Part shown: positions 1-16,043 of the stretch, piece after piece | How positions within the stretch are numbered: position 1 is the stretch's first letter | Layout of the letters: each line of letters starts with the position of its first letter | DNA from: an uncultured Elusimicrobia bacterium | GTDB taxonomy: Bacteria > Elusimicrobiota > Elusimicrobia > F11 | Direction of reading: 5' to 3' | Assembly: GCA_964463805.1 (NCBI GenBank) | Contig: CAYXDS010000002.1 | Location: forward strand, 1 to 44,842 | Length of the DNA: 44,842 bases | Position numbers and translations under genes: made by a program | Notes under the pieces: generated by a model | Told to the model about the DNA's origin: nothing | Databases searched by the model: none | The model's input: the letters and a program-made list of their open reading frames with translations, nothing else

Positions 1-613
1 GAGCGATCGCGTTGCGGTGTGAGTAGCCGAGCTGTGTTATCGCGCCGGTTTTGTACATATTGCCGAGATCCATACCGAAACCGCTGCCTGAAAAACCGGC
101 TACGTTTTGATGAATCGCTTTCAAAGTGGCCCCCAACGACATCTTCGCGTTCATCTTATATCCGTCGGAGAACATCAAAGCGGTGCGGGATTCGCCAAAC
201 GAACCCTGTTCTTGGCCCGTCTCCGAAAAACGGCGGAAATTATCGGCGCGCAAATTCACGATGCCGATGCCCATCGTGCCGTAGCGCTGCGTCGGACGCG
301 CTACATTTAATGAACCATAACTAAAACCTTCATAAAGAGTGGAGTACATCATCACCGCGTCGCCGGTTTGCAATTGCGTGAGGCCGGACGGGTTCCAATA
401 AACGGCCGACGCATCGTCGGCAACACCCGTATGCGCTTTTCCCATTCCCAGCGAACGTGCGCTCGCCGCAAAATCAAGGAACGCGCCCGGCTGGCCTCCG
501 TCGTGGCCGGTCAAATCGATGATCTCGGCTCTCACATGGTTCGAGGAAAAAATCGAACCCGTGAAAAGCAGAATCATCGCTAGGCGTTTCGTTACATGTG
601 TGATTGACTTCAT
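1..613 (-). CDS. PorV/PorQ-like (FadL-fold) outer-membrane beta-barrel protein, 5' part only (gene continues past the left window edge)
   Basis: Absent from the ORF track because it has no in-window stop. Hand reverse-complement translation from ATG 613-611 gives MKSITHVTKRLAMILLFTGSIFSSNHVRA/EIIDLTGHDGGQPGAFLDFAASARSLGMGKAHTGVADDASAVYWNPSGLTQL..., open to nt 1. It has a signal peptide plus the N-terminal 'FL..aSARslGMG....DDASAvyWNPsGL' signature I associate with PorV/PorQ and other FadL-type barrels. Confidence 0.6.
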   Translation of the reverse strand, partial: MKSITHVTKRLAMILLFTGSIFSSNHVRAEIIDLTGHDGGQPGAFLDFAASARSLGMGKAHTGVADDASAVYWNPSGLTQLQTGDAVMMYSTLYEGFSYGSLNVARPTQRYGTMGIGIVNLRADNFRRFSETGQEQGSFGESRTALMFSDGYKMNAKMSLGATLKAIHQNVAGFSGSGFGMDLGNMYKTGAITQLGYSHRNAIA

Positions 614-664
614 GTAACAAAGATAAAAATAACAGCTTAAGAGCGCCTTAAGGTCGGATTAAAA
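614..664 (-). promoter_or_regulatory. Conserved upstream module, copy A (promoter/operator candidate for the PorV-like gene)
   Basis: Plus strand GTAACAAAGATAAA(614-627)...CTTAAG(636-641)...CCTTAAGG(646-653)...GATTAAAA(657-664). The same blocks lie at identical distances from the ATG of the giant gene (15922-15972). Confidence 0.5.
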
Positions 665-711
665 GGAATGGAAGTTTAAATCAGATTGAAAAAACAAAGC
701 GTTTTTTCGTG

Positions 712-3700
712 TTACTGCGCGACGGCCAATTTGAACTTGTAGGTTCCGCGCGACGGAATCTTCAGGATCGCGATGTAACCGCCGTTGCCGGTGCTGCCCA
801 CATCCCAACGAACGAGGTTTTCGCCGGGCTGGCCTGAAATTTTACGATGCATCACATTCTCGCCGGTGGGCGTAATGATCGTAAGATCGACGTTGTCGTC
901 GCCGTTTTGCAGATAGAAGCGAATTGTGGCGCCGGTTCGTGCGCTGCATGGATTCGGATAAATTGTGAAATTCACTTCGGACGGCGTGTCGAGCACGGTC
1001 ACAGTCACTTGAGCGGCCGCCGAACGCACGCCGTTCGAGTTCCAAACAACCAATTCAAACACGAGCTTGGTCGGACCGATGACGGCCGGCGCTTGGAAAT
1101 GCGGCGTCGGCGTATCGGCGCCGATCAACACGACCGTGGGACCGCTTATTTGTTTCCATTCGTAACCCGCATAGGTCGCTTGCGTTCCAGCACCTTCACT
1201 CATCCCTAGTTGTACGTCCGTCATTTCCGGAACGGTCTGGTCTTTACCTGCGATTTGGAACGGAGCTCCCGGAGCCAACTGCGGAGCCGGCTCAACGGTC
1301 ACCAACACGTCGTCGCTGCCCGACAACACACTGTCGCTGGCCGTTAGACGTAACACATAGTCACCGGGTTGAGAAAATTGTGCGGTTGTCGCCAACGATG
1401 CAACGTTACCGAACGTGACCGTGCCCGGGCCGCTCACTTTACTCCACGTGACCGTAAACGCGCCGGGCGGATTCGGTAAACCGTCGTCGCCGGCCAAGCC
1501 GAACAAATTCGCAGGCGCGGGCAACGTCACTGAGAAATCGGATCCAGCGTTTACGGTCGGCGCTTGATTGCCGCCGGAGCTTGAATTTACCGTGATCGTC
1601 ACATCACTCGTCGTCGACAGCGCGCTGTCGTTCACCGTCAATCGAAGCACATACACGCCGACCGCTGAGAAATTCGCGGTCGTCGCCAAATTATTCGCGT
1701 TACCGAATGTGACCGTACCGGGACCAGTTACGAGACTCCACGTGACAGTGAACGCGCCGGGTGGATTTGGCAAACCATCGTCGGTGGCCGAACCGGACAA
1801 ATTCGCGGCGGCCGGCAATACAATCGTTTGATTGGGACCGGCGTTTGCCGTCGGAGGCTGATTCGAGCCCGAACCCGCGTTCACGGTGACCGTTACATCG
1901 CTCGTCGCAGTCAATTCGCCGTCGTTCCCGGTCAACCGCAGAACATAAATACCGACTGCCGAGAAATCCGCAGACGTCGCCAAATTGTTTGCATTACCGA
2001 ACGTAACCATGCCCGGACCACTCACTTTACTCCACGTTGTCGTCAATACGCCGGGCGGGTTCGGCAGTCCGTCGTCACTTGCCGAGCCGGACAGATTCGC
2101 AGAACCCGGCAAGATGACCGTTTGATTCGATCCGGCGCTCACGATTGGTTTTTGATTGCCACCGGTCCCGCCTTCTTCATTCGCCACAATCGTCACATCG
2201 CTGGTGGTCTTTAATTGGCCATCGTCCACGGTGAGTCGCAACACATACGTACCGGCGGAAGAGAATCCGGCCGTCGTCATTAAATTGTTCGGCTGACTGA
2301 ATGCAACGATTCCCGGGCCGCTGACTTTACTCCACGCCACCGTGAACGCGCCCGGTGGATTTGGCAATCCATCGTCGCTGGCGACGCCCACAAGAACGGC
2401 CGACGCCGGTAACGTTATGCTCTGGTTCAATCCGGCGTTTGCGGTCGGCGGTTGATTGCCGCCCGTGCCGCCGGTGACATTCGCTTCGATTCTCACGTCG
2501 CTGGTCGCTGAAAGCTGACTATCGCTTACCGTGAGCCGCAGCACATAAATACCAGCCGAAGAGAACCCAGCGGTTGTGGCCAACGAATTAACGTTTCCAA
2601 ATGTTACGGTTCCGGGACCGCTCACCTTGCTCCAAACCGTCGTGATTGCGGCTGGCGGGTTCGGGAGTCCATCGTCGCCGGCCGAACCGGTCAAGTTCGC
2701 CGACTGCGGCAACGTAATTATTTGATCGGGCCCCGCATTCGCCGTCGGTTTCTGGTTGCCCTCCGTTCCGCCATCTTCGTTCGCAGTGATCGTTACATCG
2801 CTGGTCACCGTCAGTTGACTGTCGCTCACGGTCAATCGCAACACGTAAATTCCGGCCGAGGAGAAATTCGCGGTCGTTACCAACGCGTTCTCATTTCCAA
2901 ATGTCACGGTGCCAGGACCGCTTATTTTCGTCCACACGGACATAATCGTAGACGGCGGGTTCGGCAATCCGTCGTCTGAGGCGCTGCCATTCAGGTTTGC
3001 GCTCGCCGGCAACGTGATCGTTTGATTGGCTCCGGCGCTCGCGGTCGGAGGCTGGTTGCCGCCCGTGCCGCCGACCACATTCACTTCGACCGGAATGTCG
3101 GCGCTTCCGATTAACTCGCCATCGTTGGCAGCCAAACGCAGTACGTAATTTCCGGCCGATGAGAAATTTGCGGTGGTCGCAATCGCACTTGCGTTGCCAA
3201 AGGTCACGGTGCCAGGACCGCTAACTTTGCTCCACGCATACGTGAGCCGTCCCGGCGGATTCGGCAAACCGTCGTCGGTAGCGCTGCCGCTTAAATTCAC
3301 GCCGGAAGGAAGCGTCGTCGTCAATCCCGGGCCGAGCGTCACAATCGGACGTTGGTTGCCGCCGGTACCGCCTTCTTCATTAACCGTCATCGAGACCAAC
3401 GCCGTATCCGTAAATTCGGTATCGGAAATCTTATAGGTGAAACTGTCGAAACCGACGAACCCGAGCGCCGGCGTATAACTCAGCGTGTTGTTCGAGTTGA
3501 TGACGACCGTGCCGTGCGCGGGCGTTCCGACCGATATGACCGTCAACGCGTCGCCGTCCGGATCGGTATCGTTTGAGAGAACTGGAACGAAGGTCGCCGT
3601 GTTGCGGATCGCCGTCGCATCATCATCGACCGCGTCGGGCGGATCGTTTCTTAAGTTGCCGTTTCCGTCCAAGTGGATCCTTAAGCGGATTGTTGAAACG

Positions 3701-6700
3701 TTGCTGTCCACCTGACCGTCGTTCACTTTGTACGTAAAGTCGTCCGTGCCCGCGTAATTCGAGGCCGGTGTGTAGGTGATGTTCGGCGGCGTGCCGCTGA
3801 TCGAGCCGTGCTGCGGTTGCGTCACGATCGCGAACGTCAGCGGGTCGCCGTCGGGATCGCTACCGAATAAAGTGATGTCCTTGGCGACGTTCACGACCGT
3901 GTGTAGAGATTGTCCTTGCGTCAGTGGCGCGTTATTGTTCGAACTGCGCACGGTGATCGTTACGTCGTCGGAACCGCTCAATTCCCCGTCGAACGCGGTC
4001 AGGCGTAAAATATACACGCCCGATTGCGAGAAGTCGGCCGTCGTCGCGAGCGCGTTCACATTTTCGAATGTAACGTTGCCCGGGCCGCTCACTTTGCTCC
4101 AGGTGGTCGTTAGAGTTCCGTTCGGTAAATCGTCGTCCGACGCACTTCCGCTCAAGATCGCGCTCGACGGCAGCGTGATCGTTTGGTCATTTCCGGCATT
4201 CGCGGTCGGATATTCATTGCCGCCGGTGCCGCCGGGCCTGTTGGCTGTGATCGTCACGTCGGCGATGCCGCTAAGTTCGCTGTCGTTCGCCGTTAAACGA
4301 AGTACGTAAGTTCCCGCCGATGAGAAGTTTGCGGTCGTGGTCAAATTATTCGCGTTGCCGAATGTTACCGTGCCGGGGCCGCTCACTTTGGTCCAGAGGT
4401 ACGTCATCGCGTTGGGCGGATTCGGTAATCCATCATCAGTAGCGCTACCGGAAAGGTTGGCCGCTGAAGGAAGCGTGATCGTTTGATTGGAACCGGCGTT
4501 AACCGTCGGCCGTTGGTTCCCGGTGCCCGGCGTATTTACCGTCATCGTCACGTCACTGGTCGAACTCAATTGGCTGTCGTCGGCGGTCAGACGCAACACA
4601 TATGTTCCCGCTTGTGGGAAGCTTACGGTCGTCGTCAAAGAATTTACGTTTGTGAAATTCGCGCTTCCAGGACCGCTGACTTGACTCCACGTGATCGTCA
4701 CCGTATTCGGCGGATTCGGTAACCCGTCATCGCTGGCCGATCCGGCCATCGTCGCGCTCGCCGGCAACGTTATCGTTTGGTTCGGACCCGCATTCACAGA
4801 CGGCGATTGATTTCCACCGGTACCGCCGTCTTCGTTGACCGTCACCTCAATTTCGTCGTGTCCTGATAATTGAGTGTCGTTCGCCGTCAGACGCAGCACA
4901 TAAATTCCGGCCGAGGAGAAATTCGCGGTCGTGGTCAACGCGGTCGCATTTCCAAACGTCACGTTTCCGGGGCCGCTCACTTTGGTCCAAGCGTACGTCA
5001 ACGCGTTTGGCGGATTCGGCAATCCGTCGTCGGTGGCCGATCCACTCAAGTTCGCGGCGGCCGGCAATGTAATGGTTTGATCGGGCCCCGCGTTTGCGAC
5101 CGGTGATTGATTTCCGCCGCTGCCGCCTTCCTCATTCACTGTCACCGTAATGTCGTCTTGTCCCGATAACGCACTGTCGTCCGCCGTCAATCGCAGCACA
5201 TAGATTCCGGCTGAGGAGAAATTCGCGGTCGTGGTCAATCCATTTGGATTTCCGAACGTCACCGTCCCGGGGCCGCTGACCTTGCTCCAGACGAACGTCA
5301 TTGTATTTGGCGGATTGGGCAGACCGTCGTCCGTCGCGCTGCCGCTTAAATTCACAGGGTCGGGCAACACAATGGTTTGATCCGGGCCCGCATTCACGAC
5401 CGGCGATTGGTTTCCAGCGTTGACGGTGATGTCCACGGCCGCCGACGCCGAAAACTCTCCATCGGAAATCGTGTAATTAAACGAGTCGGACCCCACATAG
5501 TTGTTGGAGGGCGTGTACGTCACCGTATTATTCGAATTGATTGTTACGGTACCGTGAGACGCAGGACCCGCTGCTGTTACCGTTAATGAATCTGCGTCGG
5601 GATCGCTGTCGTTCGTCAACACCGTCACTGTGACCGGCGTGTTTTGCCCCGTACTCGCTGAATCATTGACCGCGTTCGGTGGATCATTTTGACCGTTGCC
5701 ATTTTGATCCGGGTGCACATTTATTGAAACGGTTGCTATGTTACTGTCCAAGCGAGCGTCATTTGCTTTAAACGTAAACGAATCAAGTCCGATGTAACCA
5801 GAGGCCGGCGTATAAGTGAGATTCGGAGCGGTGCCGCTCAATGTCCCGTGCTGCGGCTGTGCAACAACAATATAGGAAAGAGGATCTCCATCTGGATCGG
5901 TCGCTACCAGTGTCACCTGTTTTGCCACGTTGACAACGGTATGAACCGTTTGATTCTGTGCGACCGGCGCCTGATTGTTCGAATTGTAAACAGTGATCGT
6001 CGCGTCGCCGGTGCCCGAAAGCTCACTGTCGTTCGCGGTCAAACGCACGACATAGACGCCCGACTGAGAAAAGCTTGCGGAGGTTGTCAATGCCGTTGCG
6101 TTGCCAAACGTGATCGTGCCCGGGCCGCTCACTTTGCTCCATGCATATGTCAACGCATTCGGCGGATTGGGTAAGCCATCATCGTCCGCACTGCCAGACA
6201 AATTCGCCGACGCCGGCAACGTGATGGTTTGATTCGGTCCGGCGCTCACAGTCGGTTTTTGGTTGCCACCCGTACCGCCTTGTTCATTCACAGTGATCGT
6301 CACGTCGCTCGTCGCGCTCAATTGGCTGTCGCTCGCGGTCAAACGCAGCACGTAGATTCCCGCTTGTGAGAAATTGGCGGTGGTCGTTAAGAAACTCGGG
6401 TTCATGAAACTGACCGGACCGGGACCACTCACTTTACTCCATGCGTACGTCAACTGGCCCGGCGGATTTGGTAAACCGTCATCGTCGGCGGAGCCTGAAA
6501 CCACGGCACCCGAAGGCAATGTGATCGTTTGATTATTTCCCGCGGATACGGTCGGCCGCTGATTGCCGCCCGTGCCGCCTTGTTCGTTCACGGTGATCGT
6601 CACGTCGCCGGTCGCACTCAATTGACTATCGCTTACGGTTAAACGCAAAACGTAGATCCCCGCTTTTGAGAAGCTGGCGGTGGTTGTGAGCGCGTTTGCG

Positions 6701-9700
6701 TTACCGAATGTGACGTCACCGGAGCCGCTCACTTTGCTCCATGTGTAGGTCAACGTATTCGGCGGATTCGGTAGACCGTCGTCGCTCGCGCTACCGGACA
6801 AATTCGCGCTCGACGGCAAAGTGATCGTTTGGTTCTGTCCCGCGTTCGCCGTCGGCGGCTGATTGCCGCCCGATCCTGCGTACACGGTCACCGATATCTC
6901 GTCGAATGTCGGGAATCCGCTGCCGTCGTTGGCGGTCAGACGCAACACGTATGTTCCCGGCATACTGAAATTCGCGAAGGTGGTCGGGCTGTTCGGGTCA
7001 TCAAACGTGACGCCAGGGGGGCCCATACGATAACTCCATAAGCTCGTCAGCGTGCCATTCGGGCGGCCGTCGTCGGTCACCGAACCCGCCATCTGAACGC
7101 GCCCCGGAGGCAATGGCGTCGAAAAGTCCGGACCCGCCGATACCGACGGGAGTTGGTTCCATCCGCTCTGCATCGCCGAAAGGAATTGGGACATGCACAA
7201 CGAAACGACGCGACGTTTGGACTGTGAATTGGACGTGTCGTACGTTTCGACCGACAGCGTGATCGTTTCGTCTTCGATCGACGCGCCGACCACCGCAACG
7301 CGCATCGTCGCGGTAATCAACGAAATCTGACGCAACAGCGGATCAAGATCCAAGAAATACAGATTTCCGTTCGATGTGTCGTAAACGCGCATGCGCGTCA
7401 GGAACGGATTGAAACCCATGTCATAGATTCCGTTGAAGATGAAAAGCATGTTATCGCCGTAAGCGGTTACGTTCACGTTCGGCTGGATAACGGTTGCATC
7501 GGGAATCGCTTTGCGCATAGTTTCCGAATCGAGATCGGCCACGAAATAGCGTCCGTTCCCCATCGGACCGCCGCTAGTATCCACGGTGGTCAGCAATCGG
7601 CTGTTCCGTGCGATGCTCAGCGGCATGCCAGCCATACCCGCGATCGAGATCGCATGTTGATTTGACAACGTGCCGGTCGGGGAAACCGTAAACCGATCAA
7701 TCGAAGAAGCGGAATTACCGACCGCGAACAAATACTGACCGCGAATCTCAATGAATTTATCGGCCAGCGTCGGATAAGAACCTATCAACGAACCGTTCGA
7801 ATCGTAGGCTTCGATCGCTGCCCCGCGAATCACCGATAGAACATAAACAATACCGGTGTTCGAAACCGCCACTTCCGCCTGAGATGAAATCGTTCCTTGC
7901 GTCGGGAATATCGAGCTTTGCTGCGTGGCCAAATCTTCGAGCTTTACTTGTCCCGTCGCCGAGCCGGAGGCCGGCGCGGTGAGCACCGCTACGTATCGTT
8001 TGTTTTCCGACACGTCCGCGTAACGGATGTTATTGTCTTGGTCGAGCGGCAGCAACGATGCGGCGGTCCAGATATCGACAACCGACGCCCAATGCGGCAG
8101 GCGATTTACGATCGACGGACGGTCGGTCATAACCGCCATGCCTTTGCCGAGTCCGACTAAATCGCCTCCAATCGACGAATGCGTGGTTTCGACCCACACC
8201 GGCGCCGCGCCCGGCAGCGGGCAACGCACGTCGTCGTGATCGGTGACTTGAACGCTTACATCGTCGAAGGACGAATATTCTCCGTCGGTCGCCGAGAGCC
8301 GCAGTTGATAGGTGCCCGCTTCCGAGAAACCGACCGTGGTGATCGCTTGGTTCGGCGTCGAGAAATACACGTTGCCGGGACCGCTGATTTTCGTCCATGA
8401 AATCGTCGTAGCGCCGGGCGGGTTCGGCAAACCGTCGTCGGTAACGGAAACACCGACGCTGATTTTAGAAGGCCGTTCGACCACGCGATCGGGCCCCGCA
8501 TCCACCACGGGGCCGCTGTTCGCGCCGATCGTCACATCATCGGTCCGCGTTAAATGACCGTCGAACGCGCTCAAACGCAACACGTACACGCCGGTCGTTG
8601 AGAACGAAGCAGTGGTATTAAGCGCATTGGCGTTGCCGAAAGTGACCGTCCCAGGACCACTCACCTTGCTCCAGGTTGTCACAAGCGCCGACGGTAATCC
8701 GTCGTCGGTTGCGGTTCCGTCCAATGTCGCGCCCGCGCCCAACTCGATCGATTGATCCGGCCCCGCATTGACGGTCGGCGCCGAGTGGATCACAATGCGC
8801 AACTTACGCGAGGTTTGGAATTGACCGTCGTCCGCCGTCAGCACCAAATTATAAAGGCCTTTCGCGTCGATCGACGCTTGCGTGACGAGCGCCGACGCAT
8901 TCGTGAACGTCACGTTGCCCGGGCCGGTCAGCTTGCTCCATGTGGTTGTCAATGCTCCTGGCGGGTTCGGAAATCCGTCGTCGCTCGCGGTGCCGCTTAA
9001 ATTCACGAGTGTCGGCGATTGCGTGTACTCAATTAATAAGGTGGATCCGGGATCGACGACAGGAGGTTGATTGATCGTGACTGTGACTTGGTTCGACACG
9101 CCGACATTCATCGCTTTATCGACCGCGAGCGCGCGAAGCAGATGAGAGCCGTTCAACTGAGCCGTGTTCCAATCGATTTCGTAGGGCGCTGTGGAATCGA
9201 CGCCGATCAGCGTATCGCCGTCGTAGAAATTTACGCGGAATATGCCGCTCGCGTCCGATGCGGTCGCGGCGATCTTCACAAGGCCGTTGACGGTGGAACC
9301 GTCGGTCGGCGTGGAAATGCTCACGAGCGGCGGAGTTTCATCTGGTAACGCTCCCCCGCTGCAGAGGCTTGTGAATTGATACGTTTTGCCGCGACCGGTC
9401 GCGACCAAATCCGACCGGCCGTCCAAATTCATGTCGGCGCCGGCGACGGCCGTCTCAACCGCATTCGCGTTCGGTTGCCATTTAATACCGGTATTACGTC
9501 CATTGTTGAGGCCGTACATTTGCAGCACCGGCGTGAAAGGCGGACTGAAACCTTGAACGACCACATTCTCGCCGGTCGTCGAATTTTCAAAGGGCCACAT
9601 CAAGAAGTGCGAAACCGGATACCATTCTTCCCAACTGTCGAGCAGCGAGAACGTGGTTTGGTTGCCGTTGTTCTTGACCACGCGCACAAAGCTGTGAACG

Positions 9701-12700
9701 ATGGTGGCGGAAGGCGCAATCGACCAAATAATATCATCGCGGCGACCATCGCCGTCGGCGTCGCCGATCGCAATGACGGGCGTTCCTCCCATCAGCGTGT
9801 TTGGATTCGAATCAACCGGTTGGCCCGGCCACGGGTTTGCAAAGTTACCAACGTTCCACAACACGTTTAACTTCGCATCAAAACCGGCATAAGCGATGTC
9901 GGGACGTCCGTCTCTATCGAAATCTCTCACGACGAAACCGAATCTTCCCGTTCCGAACAAATTCATCGCGACGATCGTCTTCTCGTAGTTGCCGTTGCCA
10001 CGGTTCAGATAGACCCAAATCTGTCCTTTCTCAGGCAACACGCTTGACGTATACCCGCTGACCGCGATGTCCATTTTTCCGTCATAGTTGAAGTCGGCGA
10101 ACGCGACGTCGCCTTTGAGTAAACCGCTGTCGATCAAGACCGGCGTGCCGAATTGATTGTTGCTGTACGGCCAACGCAACAGCCGCGGATTGTCCGACGC
10201 ATCTTTGCCCGAGGCGATCACATCGCCGCTGTCGGGCATGATCACAGCGCCGCCCGTCGTGATGTTGCTGTTCGGCAAGGGAATCGGCACGTAAGGAGTC
10301 TCGGGATTTCCGGGCACGTTATGAAACACGACTACATTGCTCCCGGACGGCGTTACGCCGGTTCCGACCATATCCATCAGGCCGTCGTGGTCGAAGTCGC
10401 CAGACTTCAAGGTACCGGCGCCGCCGAAAAAACCGGAAGCGGCCATGTCGGTCTCGTCGAAACCAATACGCCCACAATTAAAGACATGAACGGGCGCCGA
10501 AACGGCGGCATTCCCGACCGTGTCGAACGCCTTCGCGGTCAACGCGCGACGTCCACCCGCCGAATTCGCCGTATTCCATGTCGTCGAATACGGCGGGTTT
10601 GTGGCTGATCCAATCAAAATGTTTTCGTTATAAAACTCGACGCGCGCGATCGCATTGTTGTCGGATGCACTCGCCGAAATCGTAACCTGGCCCGTCACAA
10701 CATCGTTTTCGAGCGGAGACGTAATTGATACGGTCGGTAACGTGTGATCGACGATTACATTTACAGGCGCCGACGTTCCGATCGAACTGTTCATCGCGGT
10801 GGCGCGTGCGGTTAAAACATGCGGGCCTTCGGTCAGTGCAGACGTATTCCAATTTATCGTGTAAGGAGAATTCGTCGCCGTGCCGATTAGATTGCCGTCC
10901 GCGAGGAACTCGATTTTTTGAATACCGGACAATGCTGACGCGACTGCGGACACCGTCGCTTGAAGTCCTACAAATCCGTTGTTGGTCGGCATCGTAATCG
11001 CAACCGTCGGAACCGTGCAGGTCGCCGTGAAAAGAGCGACTTTTCCATGGCCCCATGACCCGTCCTCAAAGGCGCCAAAATCCACAAAATCAAGACGACC
11101 GTCATCGTTGAAATCACCGGCGCCGAAACCACCGAGGAAAATCCCTTGTCCAGCCGGCAAATTCCATCCCATGGAGTGGTTATAAAGACCGTTTCCGTTC
11201 GCTATATAAAGCGCCGTTTGCCCTTGATCTTGCGCTGATGGAGGAGGGGTAGAATGATCGCCTTGTACGAGGATATCTTCTCCTTTTCCAACCGAGCATG
11301 TGAACGGACCTGTCATTAGAGCATCAACGGCGAATGGCACTGTCCACGTGTCGGACTGAGAAAACGTACCGTTTTTATTTTGGAACACGCGAATCACACC
11401 GTTGGCCGTGTTCTCTGGCATTACGTCCCACACGATGTCGTTCTTGAGTCCGTCGCCATCAACGTCGCCGACCGCGACTCTCCCGAAAAACGCGTTTTGA
11501 ACCGTACCGATTTCTTTCATGGCCCAAGGACTTCCGAAATTCGGCTCACCGATCTGAGCGCCGTTGTTTTCGTAGACACGCAAAGCTTGATTTGTTCCGT
11601 TTCCATAAGAGAGAACGATATCTGGTTTTCCATCGCCGTTGAAATCACCCACATCGATTTGTCCCTGTGCCGCTGGCGCGGTATCGACCAACTTCACATG
11701 CCCATTATGGCTGCAAATAAGCTCGATAACGAAATGGAAAACGCTTCCACTGGAATTTCCGACAATCGCGATGTCCGAAAGTCCGTCCCCATCGAAATCT
11801 GCGATTTTTAAATTCCCGCCGACCAAGCCGGCCGAAGCCATCGCCACCGGAAGCCCATAGGTATGCGCGCCTGTGTGTGGCCATCGCTGCAATCCGGTCC
11901 CACTTCCACCTGAGCCGGAGGCGATGATATCGCCCGTTTCCGGAATCAACCCGATGCCACCATCCACGGTGCCGTTTATCAGGGGGACCGTCAAAAAACT
12001 CGGCGGATTCGTACGATTGTTAAAGTAGACGGCTGGATGAGGGAAATAAGGATTAAGCGAGTCAACATAATTTTCAATGAAGTCCAGCTTACCATCGTGA
12101 TCAATATCAGCGACGATTGCATCCATGCCCTTGAAAGATGGCGCCCTTGGATACGCGTGATTAGGGAAGGTCGTCAATGTGGAAGCTAAGAAGTCGCCGT
12201 TCGGGCAATTTCCACACAAATTCGAACCGCCATTCGAGACGGTCACATTAACGTCGGTAGACCACGCCTCGTGGCCCGCGTTATCGATCGCCCTCGCTTT
12301 CAGCGTGTGCGTTCCGTCTGAGAAACGCGTGGTATCCCAACGGAAATTGTAGGGGGTCGAGAGAATCGATCCCACTTGCTGCGAATCGACGAAGAAAAGC
12401 ACGCGCGCAATTCCTAAGCCGTCCGCAGCGTTCGCCGAGATCGTCACGACGCCTTGGTTCGTCGAGCTCGGCGCCGGAGACGTGATTGATACCGTCGGCG
12501 GATTGTTGTCCACCTTCACGTCTACCACCAAACTGTTGCCGGTGTTTCCGGCCGCGTCATACGCTCTCGCGATCAACGAGTAACGGCCATCGGGAACAGA
12601 TGAGGTATTCCACGTAATAGAGTAAGGGGACGATGCATCGGAACCTATCAATACGGCACCGTAATAAAATTCGACTTTCGTCACGCCGATGTTGTCACTC

Positions 12701-15700
12701 GCATCTGCGGTCAATAGCGCGTTGCCTTCCAACAACATATTCGCAGTCGGCGTTGTAATCGCAACCGTTGGTGCGGTCTGGTCGTTGTCCGATGTGACCG
12801 TAATCGACGCGCGCGCGACATTGCCTTCAGCGTCGACGGCAACGACCGTTATCACATGCGGGCCGTTAATGAATGCTTGCGAGTTCCAAATCGCGTCGTA
12901 TGAGGCCATCGCTGTGTTCGTCGAAAAAATCACCATCGAATCGACGTAGATGCGAACTTCGGTCACACCTACGTTGTCGGTCACTGTAGCGGAAACAGGC
13001 ACATTGCCTAAAACCGGCGCGTTGGGAGCGGGCGCCGTGATTTGAATGACGGGCGGCACTTCATCACGCGAGCGCGGGGGTATTCCGCAAATATTCATAT
13101 ACGGATAAAGTCCCGTATATCCGGCATAGGAGAACATTGCGCCAGGTAAAATGCCGCTGCCGATGAAATCCAATCGACCGTCGGCATCCAAATCTTTCAC
13201 GATCATTACGCCGTTCCCAAGCGCCATCGTATGCGAATTGTCCGCGGTCCAATCGGGAATATGATGATAAACGCCAGGCTGAGAAGCTTGCGGCGTGTAA
13301 AGCGATGTATGCGTCGTCCAAGAGTAATCGCGCCAATAAGCAAAACGGTTCGACGTTTGAATGACAATGTCATCCGCTTTTCTCGCCGTACCATTCGATG
13401 AACAGGTGAACGGCGCGGCGATGATGTCGGACACCGATTCGAGGGAATACCACTCGTCCGTTTTTACGAACGAACGGTTCCCGTTGTAACGGAAAACTTG
13501 AACGAAACCGCTGTTGAACGCATCGAGATCGGAAGAACCGAAAATCAAATCGTTCGATTTCCCGTCGGCATCAAGATCCCCGACCGCGACAGCCGCATCC
13601 AACGTACATTTCTTGTTGCTCACATCGGTTCGCGGCCAAGCATTGGTGCCATTGTTCCAATAAACGGTCAACGTGGGTGCATTCGGAGAGAGGAAAGCGT
13701 CCATTCTGGCGCCGGAGGTAATGATGTCGATTTTTCCATCGCCATCGATATCCGCGGCGCGCATTTTTCCGCGACCTGTGTCACCAACGACGAACGGCGT
13801 GAAATTGCCGCTTGCATCGGCGAAATAAATTCGAGTGCCGGTATCTCCGCTGATCGCTACATCGAGTCGCCCGTCCTTATTAAAGTCGGCGACAACTTGT
13901 CCGCCCCCTTGGGCGCCGACGCCGATCTCCTCTGGGGTTTGAGACCATTGATCATTTCCCAAATAACGCCATCGTGAGAATTTACCGCCAATACTACCGA
14001 CGATATCGCCGGACCCCGGAACAAATGAAACGCCCGCGGTCGGATAACTGAATCGAATCGCTTCATAGGGACTCTCAAGATCACCGGTCCCTTTATAAAC
14101 ATACGCGGGCGTGTAGTACGAGCCGCCGTTGCCGACAAGATCGAGTATGCCGTCATTATTGTAATCACCGATGTCCATGCTGGCGATAGAGTGAGGAGAA
14201 GTGTTGTCATCGGTAAAAATTCCGTCATCAAACCGATTAAATATCAGTCCGGCATTTGTCGTAAATTCAGGATAGGGGCAGCAATTGTCCGGCGGTGGAG
14301 GAACGTTCGGATCGGTGGTCACTTTGATTTGCGAGCGGCTTACGTTGCCGGCGGCGTCAATCGCTACCGCCGTCAAAATATGAGTGCCGAGCGAGGAATA
14401 ACGAGAAGTATCCCACGAGGCTGTGTAAGGCGGCGTCGTATCTTGGCTAAGCTGTGCTTCTCCGTCGACATAAAACTCCACTCTTTTTACGGAGACATTA
14501 TCGGACGCAGTCGCGCTGATCGTTACGAGTCCGTTCGGGAGCACGACCGCTCCATATAATGGAGCGGTAATTTGTACGGTTGGCGCCACTTCGTCGCCCG
14601 GCACTTGGGGAAGGCCGCAAACATTCGAATACATCACAAGCTTGGAGACCAATGCACCGCCTGTGACGCTCTTGCTCAAAAGACCGGTTCCTAAAATGTC
14701 GTATCGACCGTTTTGCATCATGCCGTATTCGCTAGCCAACGCGCCTTCACCCAGGTCCAAACCGCCTTGCTGATTGCCGGCGATCCAGTCCGGAAGGTGT
14801 TTGAATTGTCCCACCGCGCGCGGCGTGTAAAGCGCGGTGCGCATCGTCCACGGACGCGTGGTAAAAACTTCGGAGATGTCGGATTGTTGGATCACGATGT
14901 CGTCGCCGTATGTTGAACATGTGAAACGTCCGGCGATGATGTCGGTGACGCCGCCTTTCACATACCAGCGGTCGGTTCGCGTGAATTTACGGTTTCCCAA
15001 GTTACGGTAAATTTCGATAAAGCCGTTTAACGATCCGTCGAGGTCGGCGGAAGCGAAAGCGAGATCCAATTGGCCGTCTTGCCTGTCGAAATCACCGACG
15101 GCGACATTCGCATCGCCGGCAAACATAGTGGTGGCGACATCGGTGTAACTCCACGGCGCTGAAAAGTTTCCATCGTTCCAATAAACACGCAAGGTGGGAC
15201 TTGGGTTATAAATATGGAGCGGATTAAAATGGTCGACAAATCCGGCCACCACCAGATCAGGTTTTCCGTCACCATCCATGTCGGCAATGCGCAGGCGGCC
15301 ACGCGACTGACCTTTGAAAGCGTCCGTGACCGCAACTTTCGTATAAGTACCGTTCGCGGAACCGAGATAAACCCAAACGTCGTCGCCGCCGGAACGGCCG
15401 CCGCTGATCGCAATATCGGGGATGTTGTCGTTGTTCAGGTCTGCGACGGCAAAGCCCCCGTTAACGAGTCCCTCTCCGATTTGGACCGAAGACCCGAATT
15501 GGTTGTTTCCAAGATAAGGCCACTTTCTTACGGTGGTATTAAGACTGGAATCCGCGTAACAACCGACCACGCTGCCGTCGGGTAAAAAGGCCGCGCCATT
15601 GTTCGGCCCCCCGTCAGGAAGCTCAAGCAGCGTGAAATTTCCCCCGCCGTTGTTTTTGTAAACGTAACCAGCCCGGTTGTTCAAATCTCTGTTGCCGGCC

Positions 15701-15921
15701 GCCACCGCGTCGTACCAGCCATCACGGTTGTAATCGGAGATGGCCAGTGAAGCGATGCCGCGGGGAGATGTGTGGTATTCGGTATATATCCCGGCTGTGT
15801 TTCCATCGATGGAGGTAAAACCGGGATTCGTGCAGCAATCGGCCCACAGCCGATTGGGAACAAGGGCAAGAACGAAAAACGAGCCTGCAAGGCTCGTCCG
15901 AGCGAAATTCGTCCATCTCAT
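712..15921 (-). CDS. Giant secreted mosaic repeat protein (5069 aa): signal peptide, 4x[FG-GAP/VCBS propeller + Ig-like domains], ~20 PKD-like repeats, 2 cadherin-like doublets, orphan central domain, T9SS-type C-terminal sorting domain
   Basis: Single uninterrupted 15,210-nt ORF. N-terminus [30 protein letters not shown] is a signal peptide. FG-GAP/VCBS motifs include [29 protein letters not shown] and [15 protein letters not shown]. Other motif classes are listed under the sub-features below. Confidence 0.92.
   Translation of the reverse strand: [5069 protein letters not shown]
715..981 (-). other. C-terminal sorting domain of the giant protein (T9SS type-A-like / FlgD-Ig-like), aa 4981-5069
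   Basis: [89 protein letters not shown]. It shows the YPNP motif, a 'GGY..ilK' motif and a terminal K.KLAV strand at the extreme C-terminus, as in Por_Secre_tail-type CTDs. A FlgD-Ig-type fold cannot be excluded by eye. Confidence 0.55.
982..3385 (-). repeat. PKD-like tandem array 4: 7 canonical ~300-nt units (1290-3385) plus 1 divergent terminal unit (982-1290); boundaries approximate
   Basis: Recurrent unit ...NQTI(T/V)LPxxANLSGSA(S/T)[66 protein letters not shown].... At DNA level, ccgaa(t/c)gtgaccgt(g/a)cc(c/g)gg(g/a)cc recurs about every 297-300 nt. Confidence 0.8.
3386..3945 (-). repeat. Cadherin-like (bacterial Ig/Big_9-type) doublet, copy 2; boundaries approximate
   Basis: [74 protein letters not shown]... 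followed by [76 protein letters not shown].... The pattern 'D-PDGD-LT...HGT....tYTP...y.G.DsFtY' fits this class. Confidence 0.7.
3946..5420 (-). repeat. PKD-like tandem array 3 (5 units); boundaries approximate
   Basis: Five consecutive units carrying SGSA(T/S)DDGLPNPP...W(S/T)(K/Q)VSGPG...YVLRLTA(D/N)D. Confidence 0.8.
5421..5985 (-). repeat. Cadherin-like (bacterial Ig/Big_9-type) doublet, copy 1; boundaries approximate
   Basis: [74 protein letters not shown]... followed by [76 protein letters not shown].... It aligns end to end with copy 2. Confidence 0.7.
5986..7150 (-). repeat. PKD-like tandem array 2 (4 units); boundaries approximate
   Basis: Four units. Adjacent units at 6291-6590 and 6591-6890 are in exact 300-nt register and look about three-quarters identical by eye. 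Confidence 0.8.
7151..8239 (-). other. Orphan central domain (~363 aa, aa ~2561-2923) inserted between PKD arrays; fold unknown (beta-rich, possibly propeller)
   Basis: Non-repetitive stretch from ...[22 protein letters not shown]... to ...[18 protein letters not shown].... It carries none of the PKD, FG-GAP or cadherin motifs, and a single Cys sits near each boundary. Confidence 0.5.
8240..9075 (-). repeat. PKD-like tandem array 1 (3 more divergent units); boundaries approximate
   Basis: [59 protein letters not shown] and [32 protein letters not shown]. Confidence 0.75.
9076..15840 (-). repeat. Four FG-GAP/VCBS propeller + Ig-like supermodules (approx. 14290-15840, 12230-14289, 10480-12229, 9076-10479), carrying 1, 3, 2 and 1 Ig-like domains
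   Basis: Each module opens with a Cys motif ([34 protein letters not shown]) and contains repeated (D/N)x(D/N)xDGxxD(I/L)(V/A)xxG calcium-loop-like motifs. Each ends at a Cys (VCGLP, ICGIP, ATCTVP, SLCSGG). Ig-like units follow, of the type P(T/L)V(S/A)ITxPxxxxxVxGxVxIxAxASDNxGVxxVEFYVDG...PYxxxWNT....GxHxLxAxAxDxAGN. Confidence 0.75.
15841..15921 (-). other. Signal peptide of the giant protein (aa 1-27)
   Basis: [28 protein letters not shown] has a basic n-region, a hydrophobic core and an AxA-like LWA cleavage site. Confidence 0.7.
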
Positions 15922-15972
15922 GTAACAAAGATAAATCGAATTTCTTAAGAATTCCTTAAGGAAAGATTAAAA
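15922..15972 (-). promoter_or_regulatory. Conserved upstream module, copy B (promoter/operator candidate for the giant gene)
   Basis: Plus strand GTAACAAAGATAAA(15922-15935)...TCTTAAGA(15943-15950)...CCTTAAGG(15954-15961)...GATTAAAA(15965-15972). Block offsets from the ATG (+23, +33, +44 nt) are identical to copy A at 614-664. Confidence 0.5.
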
Positions 15973-15990
15973 CTGCACGAAGAAAATGCT

Positions 15991-16035
15991 TTTCACAAAA
16001 TCAGGCTGAAAAGACACGCCGGATTTTGTGTGAAA
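15991..16035 (-). terminator. Candidate stem-loop terminator downstream of the RNase E/G-family gene
   Basis: Arms TTTCACAAAATC (15991-16002) and GATTTTGTGTGAAA (16022-16035) pair with a 2-nt bulge around a ~19-nt loop. On the minus-strand RNA the hairpin is followed by AGCAUUUUCUUC. The stem is AT-rich and the loop large, so this is weak. Confidence 0.3.
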
Positions 16036-16043
16036 TTTTAGTG

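Follow-up and report, generated by a model that had tools for sequence, protein, structure and literature searches.

PorZ and PorU, two proteins of the Porphyromonas gingivalis type IX secretion system (T9SS), have type-A C-terminal domains (CTDs) that are retained, and that are bound to the outer-membrane barrels PorQ and PorV, respectively (PMC10202324). In Flavobacterium johnsoniae, the gene of the giant repetitive adhesin SprB is followed by that of a dedicated FadL-fold barrel, SprF, in a genome with many paralogous pairs of this kind, and the PorP/SprF barrel has been proposed to anchor the uncleaved cargo that bears type B CTDs (PMC10202324). The present study deals with a two-gene locus that recalls both of these arrangements, in an uncultured Elusimicrobia bacterium (GenBank assembly GCA_964463805.1), at the end of contig CAYXDS010000002.1, the whole of which (44842 nucleotides, nt; hereafter, the window) was analyzed. 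One gene encodes a giant, adhesin-like surface protein of 5069 amino acids (aa), and the other an outer-membrane barrel. An earlier note, made from the letters of the window alone, had proposed that the two form a dedicated pair of T9SS-type cargo and cognate barrel.

The locus has a type-A-like immunoglobulin (Ig) CTD at the extreme C-terminus of the giant protein and a PorV/PorQ-family 14-strand barrel, as in the PorZ–PorQ and PorU–PorV couples of the T9SS attachment complex, and the profile of the tail family matches the CTDs of PorZ and PorU best, while the barrel scores higher against PorQ than against PorV. In P. gingivalis, however, the respective genes are not side by side, and their products are parts of a Bacteroidota machine of approximately 20 proteins, whereas here the partner is giant and adhesin-like, the genes are adjacent, the host is a member of the Elusimicrobiota, and the barrel falls under both equivalog cut-offs. 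With SprB–SprF the locus shares the succession of a giant adhesin gene and a dedicated barrel gene, but the tail is not of type B, the barrel is not of the PorP/SprF family, and the phylum is a different one. PorV bound to the SprA translocon (6h3i, 8gl6) is the best sequence and fold match among the solved structures, and its plug motif aligns with the one found here, but PorV is a single housekeeping copy that serves many cargoes, with 367–402 aa rather than approximately 300–330 aa, and the scores obtained here with its model are 26.6–85 bits, for a cut-off of 250.

The components are recognizable, and the placing of a dedicated barrel beside a giant cargo with a CTD is already known from the type B CTDs and their PorP/SprF barrels. 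What sets this locus apart is the combination of a type-A-like tail nearest to those of PorZ and PorU, a PorV/PorQ-family barrel, tight pairing, a host outside the Fibrobacterota–Chlorobiota–Bacteroidota (FCB) group, and recurrence in many candidate phyla, and no description of this combination of tail and PorV/PorQ barrel was found in the searchable literature. The two genes probably encode a cognate cargo–barrel docking pair, a reading that leaves the translocon unspecified.

The C-Terminal Tail of the Giant Protein

The motifs IYPNP, GGYIAILKI, and YKFKLAVAQ are all present, as they had been quoted, in the 89-aa end of the giant protein. The C-terminal half of the protein scores 60.2 bits against the T9SS CTD model TIGR04183 (cut-off 23), with the tail as the sole stretch that passes by itself, and the last 100 aa match the CTD region of NF052323 (E 2.7e-8). 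The FlgD_ig model (PF13860) has no match in the window tail even at E <= 10, and the type B CTD models TIGR04131 and CHU_C (PF13585) do not match it either.

A tail family was assembled by taking the tails of 27 proteins whose genes lie directly upstream of related barrels, or 28 tails with that of the window, which lines up with the others at each motif (YPNP, a V.L.I strand, W, GGY, and K.KLAV). A hidden Markov model (HMM) built from the 27 other tails, with the window tail excluded, scores the latter at 45.4 bits, in comparison with 11.5 bits for the best of 2000 shuffles, and the match spans aa 4984–5068 of 5069, with the type-A motifs (IYPNP, GGYIAIL, and KFKLAV, in the family columns) at the extreme C-terminus. 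TIGR04183 matches 24 of the 28 tails (E <= 0.01), the PorZ model also 24, the PorU model 18, FlgD_ig 19, and PF18962 15, with weak CHU_C matches in 13, the window tail not being among them. Judged by these matches, the FlgD_ig and T9SS CTD families overlap within the tail family. When the profile of the family is compared with the PDB, it finds the PorZ CTD (5m11, 1.3e-11), the PorU CTD (6za2, 4.7e-10), FlgD (2e-9), and the cleaved gingipain CTDs (0.015). The profiles thus place the window tail, as a divergent member, in the T9SS type-A CTD/FlgD-Ig superfamily.

The ranking of these structures bears on one alternative, in which the giant protein would be an ordinary T9SS cargo, with a full T9SS (SprA/Sov, PorKLMN, PorU, and PorZ) encoded elsewhere, a type-A CTD cleaved by PorU, and a general PorV that is adjacent by chance. 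The tail and the barrel do both belong to T9SS-associated superfamilies, and a giant protein made of folded domains would suit a large pore of the SprA type, but the tail family is nearer to the retained CTDs of PorZ and PorU (E ~1e-11) than to the cleaved CTDs of the gingipains. The barrel and its genomic setting bear further on this alternative, as set out below.

The PorV/PorQ-Family Barrel

The gene downstream from the giant gene encodes a signal peptide, with cleavage at approximately VRA/E, followed by the plug motif ARSLGMG..DDASAVYWNPSGL, and both features are present as the earlier note had quoted them. The 204-aa fragment scores 88.5 bits against the PorV/PorQ model NF033709 (cut-off 90), covering profile positions 6–164 of 326, as a fragment of approximately 60%. 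It reaches none of the equivalog cut-offs, with 74.1 bits for PorQ (NF033711, cut-off 220), 69.5 for PorV2 (NF052325, 325), and 26.6 for PorV (NF033710, 250). The Pfam matches to Toluene_X and UPF0164 are weak, that of Toluene_X/FadL (PF03349) being 19.3 bits (cut-off 29.7), and limited to the plug motif (aa 49–84).

Nine of the ten full-length relatives that were scanned pass NF033709, at 108–198 bits, while the tenth, from locus L022, is just below the cut-off of 90, at 87.7 bits. The nearest of the full-length relatives (P0001, P0003, and L003) score 122–139 bits. The full-length relatives reach no equivalog cut-off (PorV <=85, PorQ <=115, and PorV2 <=93 bits), and NCBI already labels relatives as ‘PorV/PorQ family protein’. 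In the PDB, the profile of the barrel family finds PorV (6h3i_F) at 6.7e-31, with the N-terminal plug motif aligned, and FadL at 0.16. The comparison of PorV/PorQ and FadL models that the earlier note had suggested as a check is in favor of the former, and the barrel is assigned, on its sequence profiles, to the PorV/PorQ family, and not to the FadL-type transporters.

The comparison with SprB and SprF that had been drawn at the outset proved to be imprecise. The PorP/SprF model TIGR03519 has no match in the window barrel fragment (and gives 19 bits for P0001, against a cut-off of 90.55), just as the type B CTD models have none in the tail. SprF belongs to the PorP/SprF family, and SprB carries a type B CTD.

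An AlphaFold2 (AF2) model of P0001, the nearest relative, is a FadL-fold barrel (pLDDT 87, pTM 0.83), which comes closest in fold to PorV of the T9SS complex with bound substrate (8gl6_F, TMq 0.74), with FadL at 0.67–0.72, and BamG chains at 0.55–0.58. The 14-strand FadL fold, closer to PorV, is a property of the barrel family and of P0001, rather than of the cut protein of the window. These likenesses would fit a different role, in which the barrel would take up hydrophobic molecules as a FadL/TodX-type channel, or act as a BamG-like accessory of the β-barrel assembly machinery (BAM), with no functional link to the giant protein, whose tail would be just a terminal Ig domain. FadL structures match the fold almost as well as PorV, and there are matches to BamG chains too (PMC12578637), while FadL/TodX and the spirochaetal FadL-like outer-membrane proteins (UPF0164) have the same plugged 14-strand fold, in addition to the weak Pfam matches, and a C-terminal tetratricopeptide repeat (TPR) region is found in some of the relatives studied here. 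The sequence profiles, however, favor PorV over FadL by approximately 30 orders of magnitude, the likeness to FadL being marginal, and the TMq to BamG is low. The adjacency to tail-bearing genes, a pairing which is not known for FadL/TodX genes, is conserved across phyla, and the two genes of the window have a common regulatory cassette, as described below. A FadL-like or BamG-like role is considered very unlikely.

The TPR regions are found in the longer barrels of other phyla (L012, L015, L022, and others), of approximately 600–690 aa, and in the 401-aa barrel of L041, in which the PorV/PorQ barrel is followed by a C-terminal TPR region that is presumably periplasmic. A C-terminal TPR extension has also been described for the FadL-like proteins of Treponema pallidum.

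Homologues of the window barrel are rare and distant, the best being 49% identical. The highest local identity, 67%, is that of P0004 (269 aa, on a 1017-nt JGI contig), in which a beta-helix-like sequence is fused in frame before the N-terminus of the barrel, with no signal peptide between them, which may be either a read-through of the gene call or a real fusion.

Conservation of the Gene Pair

A barrel alignment was scanned against one genome per GTDB species, which recovered 217 relatives. The best 80 loci belong to Elusimicrobiota, Ignavibacteria, Zixibacteria, Krumholzibacteriia, Eisenbacteria, Latescibacteria, Poribacteria, KSB1, WOR-3, FCPU426, Gemmatimonadota, Fibrobacteraceae, and Phycisphaerae. 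At approximately 31 loci, a large open reading frame (ORF) that ends in the tail motif lies directly 5' of the barrel and on the same strand, the gap being -58 to approximately 200 nt (most within 20 nt), and these ORFs reach >3300 aa. By crude gene calls, a tail-bearing ORF lies immediately upstream, on the same strand, in 29 of the 69 barrel-family ORFs, and immediately downstream in seven more, whereas tail-bearing ORFs away from the barrels number only 24 among 825 ORFs. The adjacency of tail and barrel is, then, strongly enriched and conserved across phyla, which supports the idea of a dedicated pair.

The pairing is also found in the immediate kin of the window barrel, whose four nearest relatives (P0001 in L165, P0002 in L166, P0003 in L002, and L003) each follow a tail-bearing gene, in five pairs, the protein before P0003 being >2562 aa in length. 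More than one barrel locus was recovered from several of the Elusimicrobiota metagenome-assembled genomes, and pairs are present in those of this phylum with the contigs CAZFYO010000005, JAJUJA010000016/22, JACPOW010000134, JACQRQ010000251, and CAYJXJ010000031. The cargo varies from pair to pair (NHL propellers, OmpL47-type domains, and glycanases are among the examples), and the barrel therefore goes with the tail, and not with any particular passenger.

The host itself can be placed by its elongation factor G (EF-G), which is 91% identical to proteins of Elusimicrobia/Elusimicrobiota, with every named top match coming from this phylum. The contig thus belongs to the Elusimicrobiota, outside the FCB group, in agreement with the initial impression that the genome was not that of a typical member of the Bacteroidota. 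This phylum is beyond the reported range of the T9SS (PMC11285876, PMC4793230), and counts against an ordinary T9SS cargo beside a general PorV. Such a cargo is also difficult to reconcile with the presence of several barrel paralogues per genome, each beside a different tail-bearing gene, with the strong enrichment of the adjacency, and with the PorV score of the window barrel, its relatives likewise being far below the cut-off, and this alternative is judged to be unlikely.

The distribution of the pairs can be read in another way. They are found in Elusimicrobiota, Poribacteria, WOR-3, and FCPU426, in which no T9SS has been described (PMC11285876), and no core genes were seen among the scanned neighbors of the pairs. 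The pair could, in this case, be a two-partner system that works autonomously, with no T9SS core, in which the barrel, alone or with BAM, would export and anchor its neighbor, in the manner of TpsA/TpsB or of a split inverse autotransporter, and the TPR extension of many of the barrels, which is presumably periplasmic, could serve to bind the partner in an unfolded state. In two-partner secretion, as here, the gene of a very large repetitive exoprotein lies beside that of a dedicated outer-membrane barrel, but TpsB, an Omp85 barrel of 16 strands, has POTRA domains and reads an N-terminal TPS domain, whereas the locus described here has a FadL-fold barrel, a C-terminal Ig signal, and the reverse gene order. 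The bore of a plugged FadL-fold barrel with 14 strands is narrow, moreover, and cargo sizes of up to >3300–5069 aa point to a machine that is powered or of large bore. No member of the FadL fold is known to translocate polypeptides, which is a further point against an autonomous system, and the latter seems improbable.

Individual loci vary in layout. The barrel is followed, rather than preceded, by the tail-bearing gene in L008, L016, L044, L051, L075, and L077, while two cargo–barrel pairs stand in tandem in L003 (17-10331), and a related barrel in L079 (Phycisphaerae) has no tail-bearing neighbor. In L148 (17451-21424, minus strand), a contig that was found via its RNase G (53% identity), a 982-aa tail-bearing gene precedes a 340-aa barrel, approximately 6 kb from the RNase G gene. 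In four Elusimicrobia loci (L004, L005, L007, and L010, at approximately 10.7–13.6 kb), the barrel is followed by a gene of approximately 630–960 aa, and the two products that were scanned (L005 and L010) have a FliG-like domain and TPR repeats. A sensor-kinase-like gene is found 5' of the barrel in L008 and L009, and the barrel thus has a context of another kind in these loci. The NCBI PorV2 family was considered as a precedent for dedicated pairs, and was rejected, given that PorV2 of Nonlabens adjoins Lnt, with no CTD cargo gene beside it.

A Candidate Docking Mechanism

In the mechanism proposed here for the cognate docking pair, which rests on homology and on the conserved adjacency of the genes, the giant protein and the barrel would both cross the inner membrane by the Sec pathway, and BAM would insert the barrel into the outer membrane. 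The tail of the giant protein would then dock on its own barrel, in the way in which PorZ and PorU dock, by their retained CTDs, on PorQ and PorV, and the type B CTD cargo on PorP/SprF, and the barrel would escort the giant protein, anchor it at the outer membrane, or do both. The crossing of the outer membrane by a chain of 5069 aa may involve a SprA-like translocon or some other route. A bolder extension of the scheme is put forward tentatively, and is regarded as rather doubtful, namely, that the tail–barrel pair is a self-contained module of surface display or secretion without a T9SS core, widely distributed beyond the FCB group (with pairs in Elusimicrobiota, Poribacteria, WOR-3, and FCPU426), and perhaps an ancestral docking unit that was later recruited as PorV, PorQ, and PorP/SprF.

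A number of observations weigh against the docking pair. The isolated last 100 aa of the giant protein score 21.3 bits against TIGR04183 (E 2e-4, cut-off 23) and 18.6 against PF18962 (cut-off 27), and thus stay under both cut-offs. The resemblance to a T9SS CTD that the earlier note had claimed holds in the sense that the tail is nearer to such a domain than to FlgD. A phmmer search of the PDB with the window tail alone found no solved CTD, the likeness being detected by profiles alone. On the model of P0001, the fold does not by itself separate PorV from FadL, a distinction that is made by the sequence. The window barrel, in turn, is known from its N-terminal 204 codons only, with the C-terminal half and the downstream neighbors cut off. 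No T9SS core genes were seen in the 44.8-kb window, which has only housekeeping genes besides the pair, nor among the scanned neighbors of the related pairs, a few of which had no family match. These neighbors include leucyl-tRNA synthetase, the FliG-like/TPR protein, anti-sigma regulators, a TonB-dependent receptor, an AddA-like helicase, RNase R, and ComEC. The T9SS genes, finally, are reported from Bacteroidota, possibly together with other phyla of the FCB group, and are said to be absent elsewhere (PMC11285876, PMC4793230, PMC10202324). No relevant paper linking Elusimicrobia to the T9SS was found in the literature, and the search across the other candidate phyla recovered surveys only.

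Structure of the Locus and of the Giant Protein

The giant gene is an uninterrupted ORF on the minus strand (712..15921), with an ATG start and a TAA stop at 712-714, and the ATG of the barrel gene, on the same strand, is at 611-613, 98 nt past this TAA. The single 15.2-kb ORF and the spacing of the two genes are, then, as first described, and the strand, which had been left unstated, can be added. Only 204 codons of the barrel gene remain before the contig ends, the 3' half lying beyond it, and the gene is missing from the list of ORFs because those that run off an end go unlisted. The coordinates of the features are given in Table 1.

Table 1. Features of the giant gene and the barrel gene in the window (nt positions; domain limits of the giant protein in aa).
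Feature	Position	Strand	Basis or remarks
Upstream cassette of giant gene	15919..16043	-	Hairpin + U-run, TTTTAATC, CTTAAG pair, TTTATCTTTGTTAC; no Shine–Dalgarno
Signal peptide, giant protein aa 1-27	15841..15921	-	Direct reading
Four FG-GAP/VCBS propeller modules + Big_7 Ig, aa 28-2286	9064..15840	-	Pfam
First PKD-like (K319L-like) block, three units, aa 2287-2560	8242..9063	-	Pfam + iterated HMM
Orphan central domain, aa 2561-2924	7150..8241	-	No detectable homologue
17 PKD-like units + two Big_9/Cadherin_5 doublets, aa 2925-4980	982..7149	-	Pfam + iterated HMM
Candidate C-terminal Ig-like sorting/anchoring tail, aa 4981-5069	715..981	-	Divergent T9SS type-A CTD/FlgD-Ig superfamily, by profiles
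Intergenic cassette before barrel gene	614..711	-	Homologous to giant-gene cassette
PorV/PorQ-family outer-membrane barrel gene, 5' part, 204 codons	1..613	-	Profile scores; signal peptide, plug motif

The domain inventory that had been read from the giant protein, with its signal peptide, four propellers with Ig domains, approximately 20 PKD-like units, two cadherin-like doublets, and an orphan domain, proved to be correct when examined with Pfam and an iterated HMM. The cleavage site of the signal peptide (MRWTNFARTSLAGSFFVLALVPNRLWA / D) was read by eye. The Pfam families FG-GAP_3/FG-GAP form four distinct blocks, with one to three Big_7 domains after each of them, and each module starts with a Cys-containing motif (CCTNPGF, CCPYPEF, CGNCPNGDF, and CGRIGF, at aa ~29, 547, 1240, and 1800, or window positions ~15830, 14280, 12200, and 10520), which may act as a disulfide staple. 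An HMM iterated on the giant protein itself recovers 19 strong PKD-like (K319L-like) units (aa 2287-2560, 2925-3312, 3507-3992, and 4192-4877), to which Pfam adds a weaker one at aa ~4891-4976, and neighboring PKD units share 73–76% DNA identity. The two Big_9/Cadherin_5 doublets occupy aa 3318-3501 and 3997-4181.

The orphan domain, of 364 aa, has no match in Pfam, the PDB, or a word-indexed search of 5.8 billion proteins, and phmmer, run exhaustively on 1.84 billion representative proteins, recovered no homologue either. Its single-sequence AF2 model is unreliable (pLDDT 36.6), with serial beta-hairpins only, and the domain may, on this model, be a very divergent propeller.

The remaining genes of the window are housekeeping genes on the same strand, that is, the 3' end of rpoC, fusA, a ribosomal protein cluster, rpoA, L17, mreB, mreC, PBP2, rodA, DUF2344, and RNase G. 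The window was described at first as part of a GC-rich genome that uses Shine–Dalgarno sites, and its GC content is 0.50–0.58, with a GGAG-type Shine–Dalgarno sequence in most of the genes; the giant gene and the barrel gene, however, are themselves without one. An Rfam scan of the window returned no RNA family matches.

The Upstream Cassette and the Accessory Nature of the Pair

The 125 nt before the giant gene (15919-16043) and the 101 nt before the barrel gene (611-711), both on the minus strand, are homologous. The two copies have the same order of elements, with a hairpin and U-run just past the preceding stop, TTTTAATC, two palindromic CTTAAG motifs 11 bp apart, and TTTATCTTTGTTAC, which abuts the ATG. 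In the giant-gene cassette, the hairpin and U-run are located at ~15994-16030, after the RNase G stop, and the CTTAAG pair at 15944-15961, while in the barrel-gene cassette the hairpin and U-run are found at 688-708, and CTTAAG-N5-CTTAAG at 636-653. The motifs of the cassette have no further occurrence in the window. The cassette and its CTTAAG-N5-CTTAAG motif are also absent from 166 related loci, and the cassette is therefore private to this genome.

The -7 box of Bacteroidota promoters is TAnnTTTG, a pattern that TATCTTTG fits, and, given its position, the transcript would start at or near the ATG, although the latter is speculation. The cassette may thus combine a shared operator with a leaderless start, and the two genes would be switched on together via the same private upstream sequence.

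The neighborhood of the pair is conserved without the pair itself. Six metagenome contigs (L083-L088), whose RNase G is 70–82% identical to that of the window, keep the synteny (S4 to RNase G, with rpoA-mreB-rodA-RNase G), and lack the pair. RNase G is followed by two small genes in the two nearest contigs (L083 and L084), and by genes of approximately 500 aa in the other contigs, with no giant gene. Given that these relatives keep the synteny without the pair, the latter is an insertion in this lineage, and the giant gene and the barrel gene represent an accessory, lineage-specific two-gene insertion.

Implications for Surface Proteins in Uncultured Phyla

Reviews confine the T9SS genes and their CTD cargo to the Bacteroidota or the FCB group (PMC10202324, PMC11285876), a range with which the Elusimicrobiota pair contrasts, and the same pairing of tail and barrel is found in at least ten lineages besides the Elusimicrobiota. 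There are two possibilities, either that these phyla have an unrecognized type IX translocon, or that the docking step is independent of the translocon, which, if true, would bear on the evolution of the T9SS. The duplicated private promoter cassette, in turn, provides a handle on the regulation of the pair. The pairing also suggests a rule for annotation, in which a barrel paralogue beside a tail-bearing gene marks the product of the latter as a likely surface protein, and this would aid the prediction of adhesins and surface enzymes in uncultured phyla.

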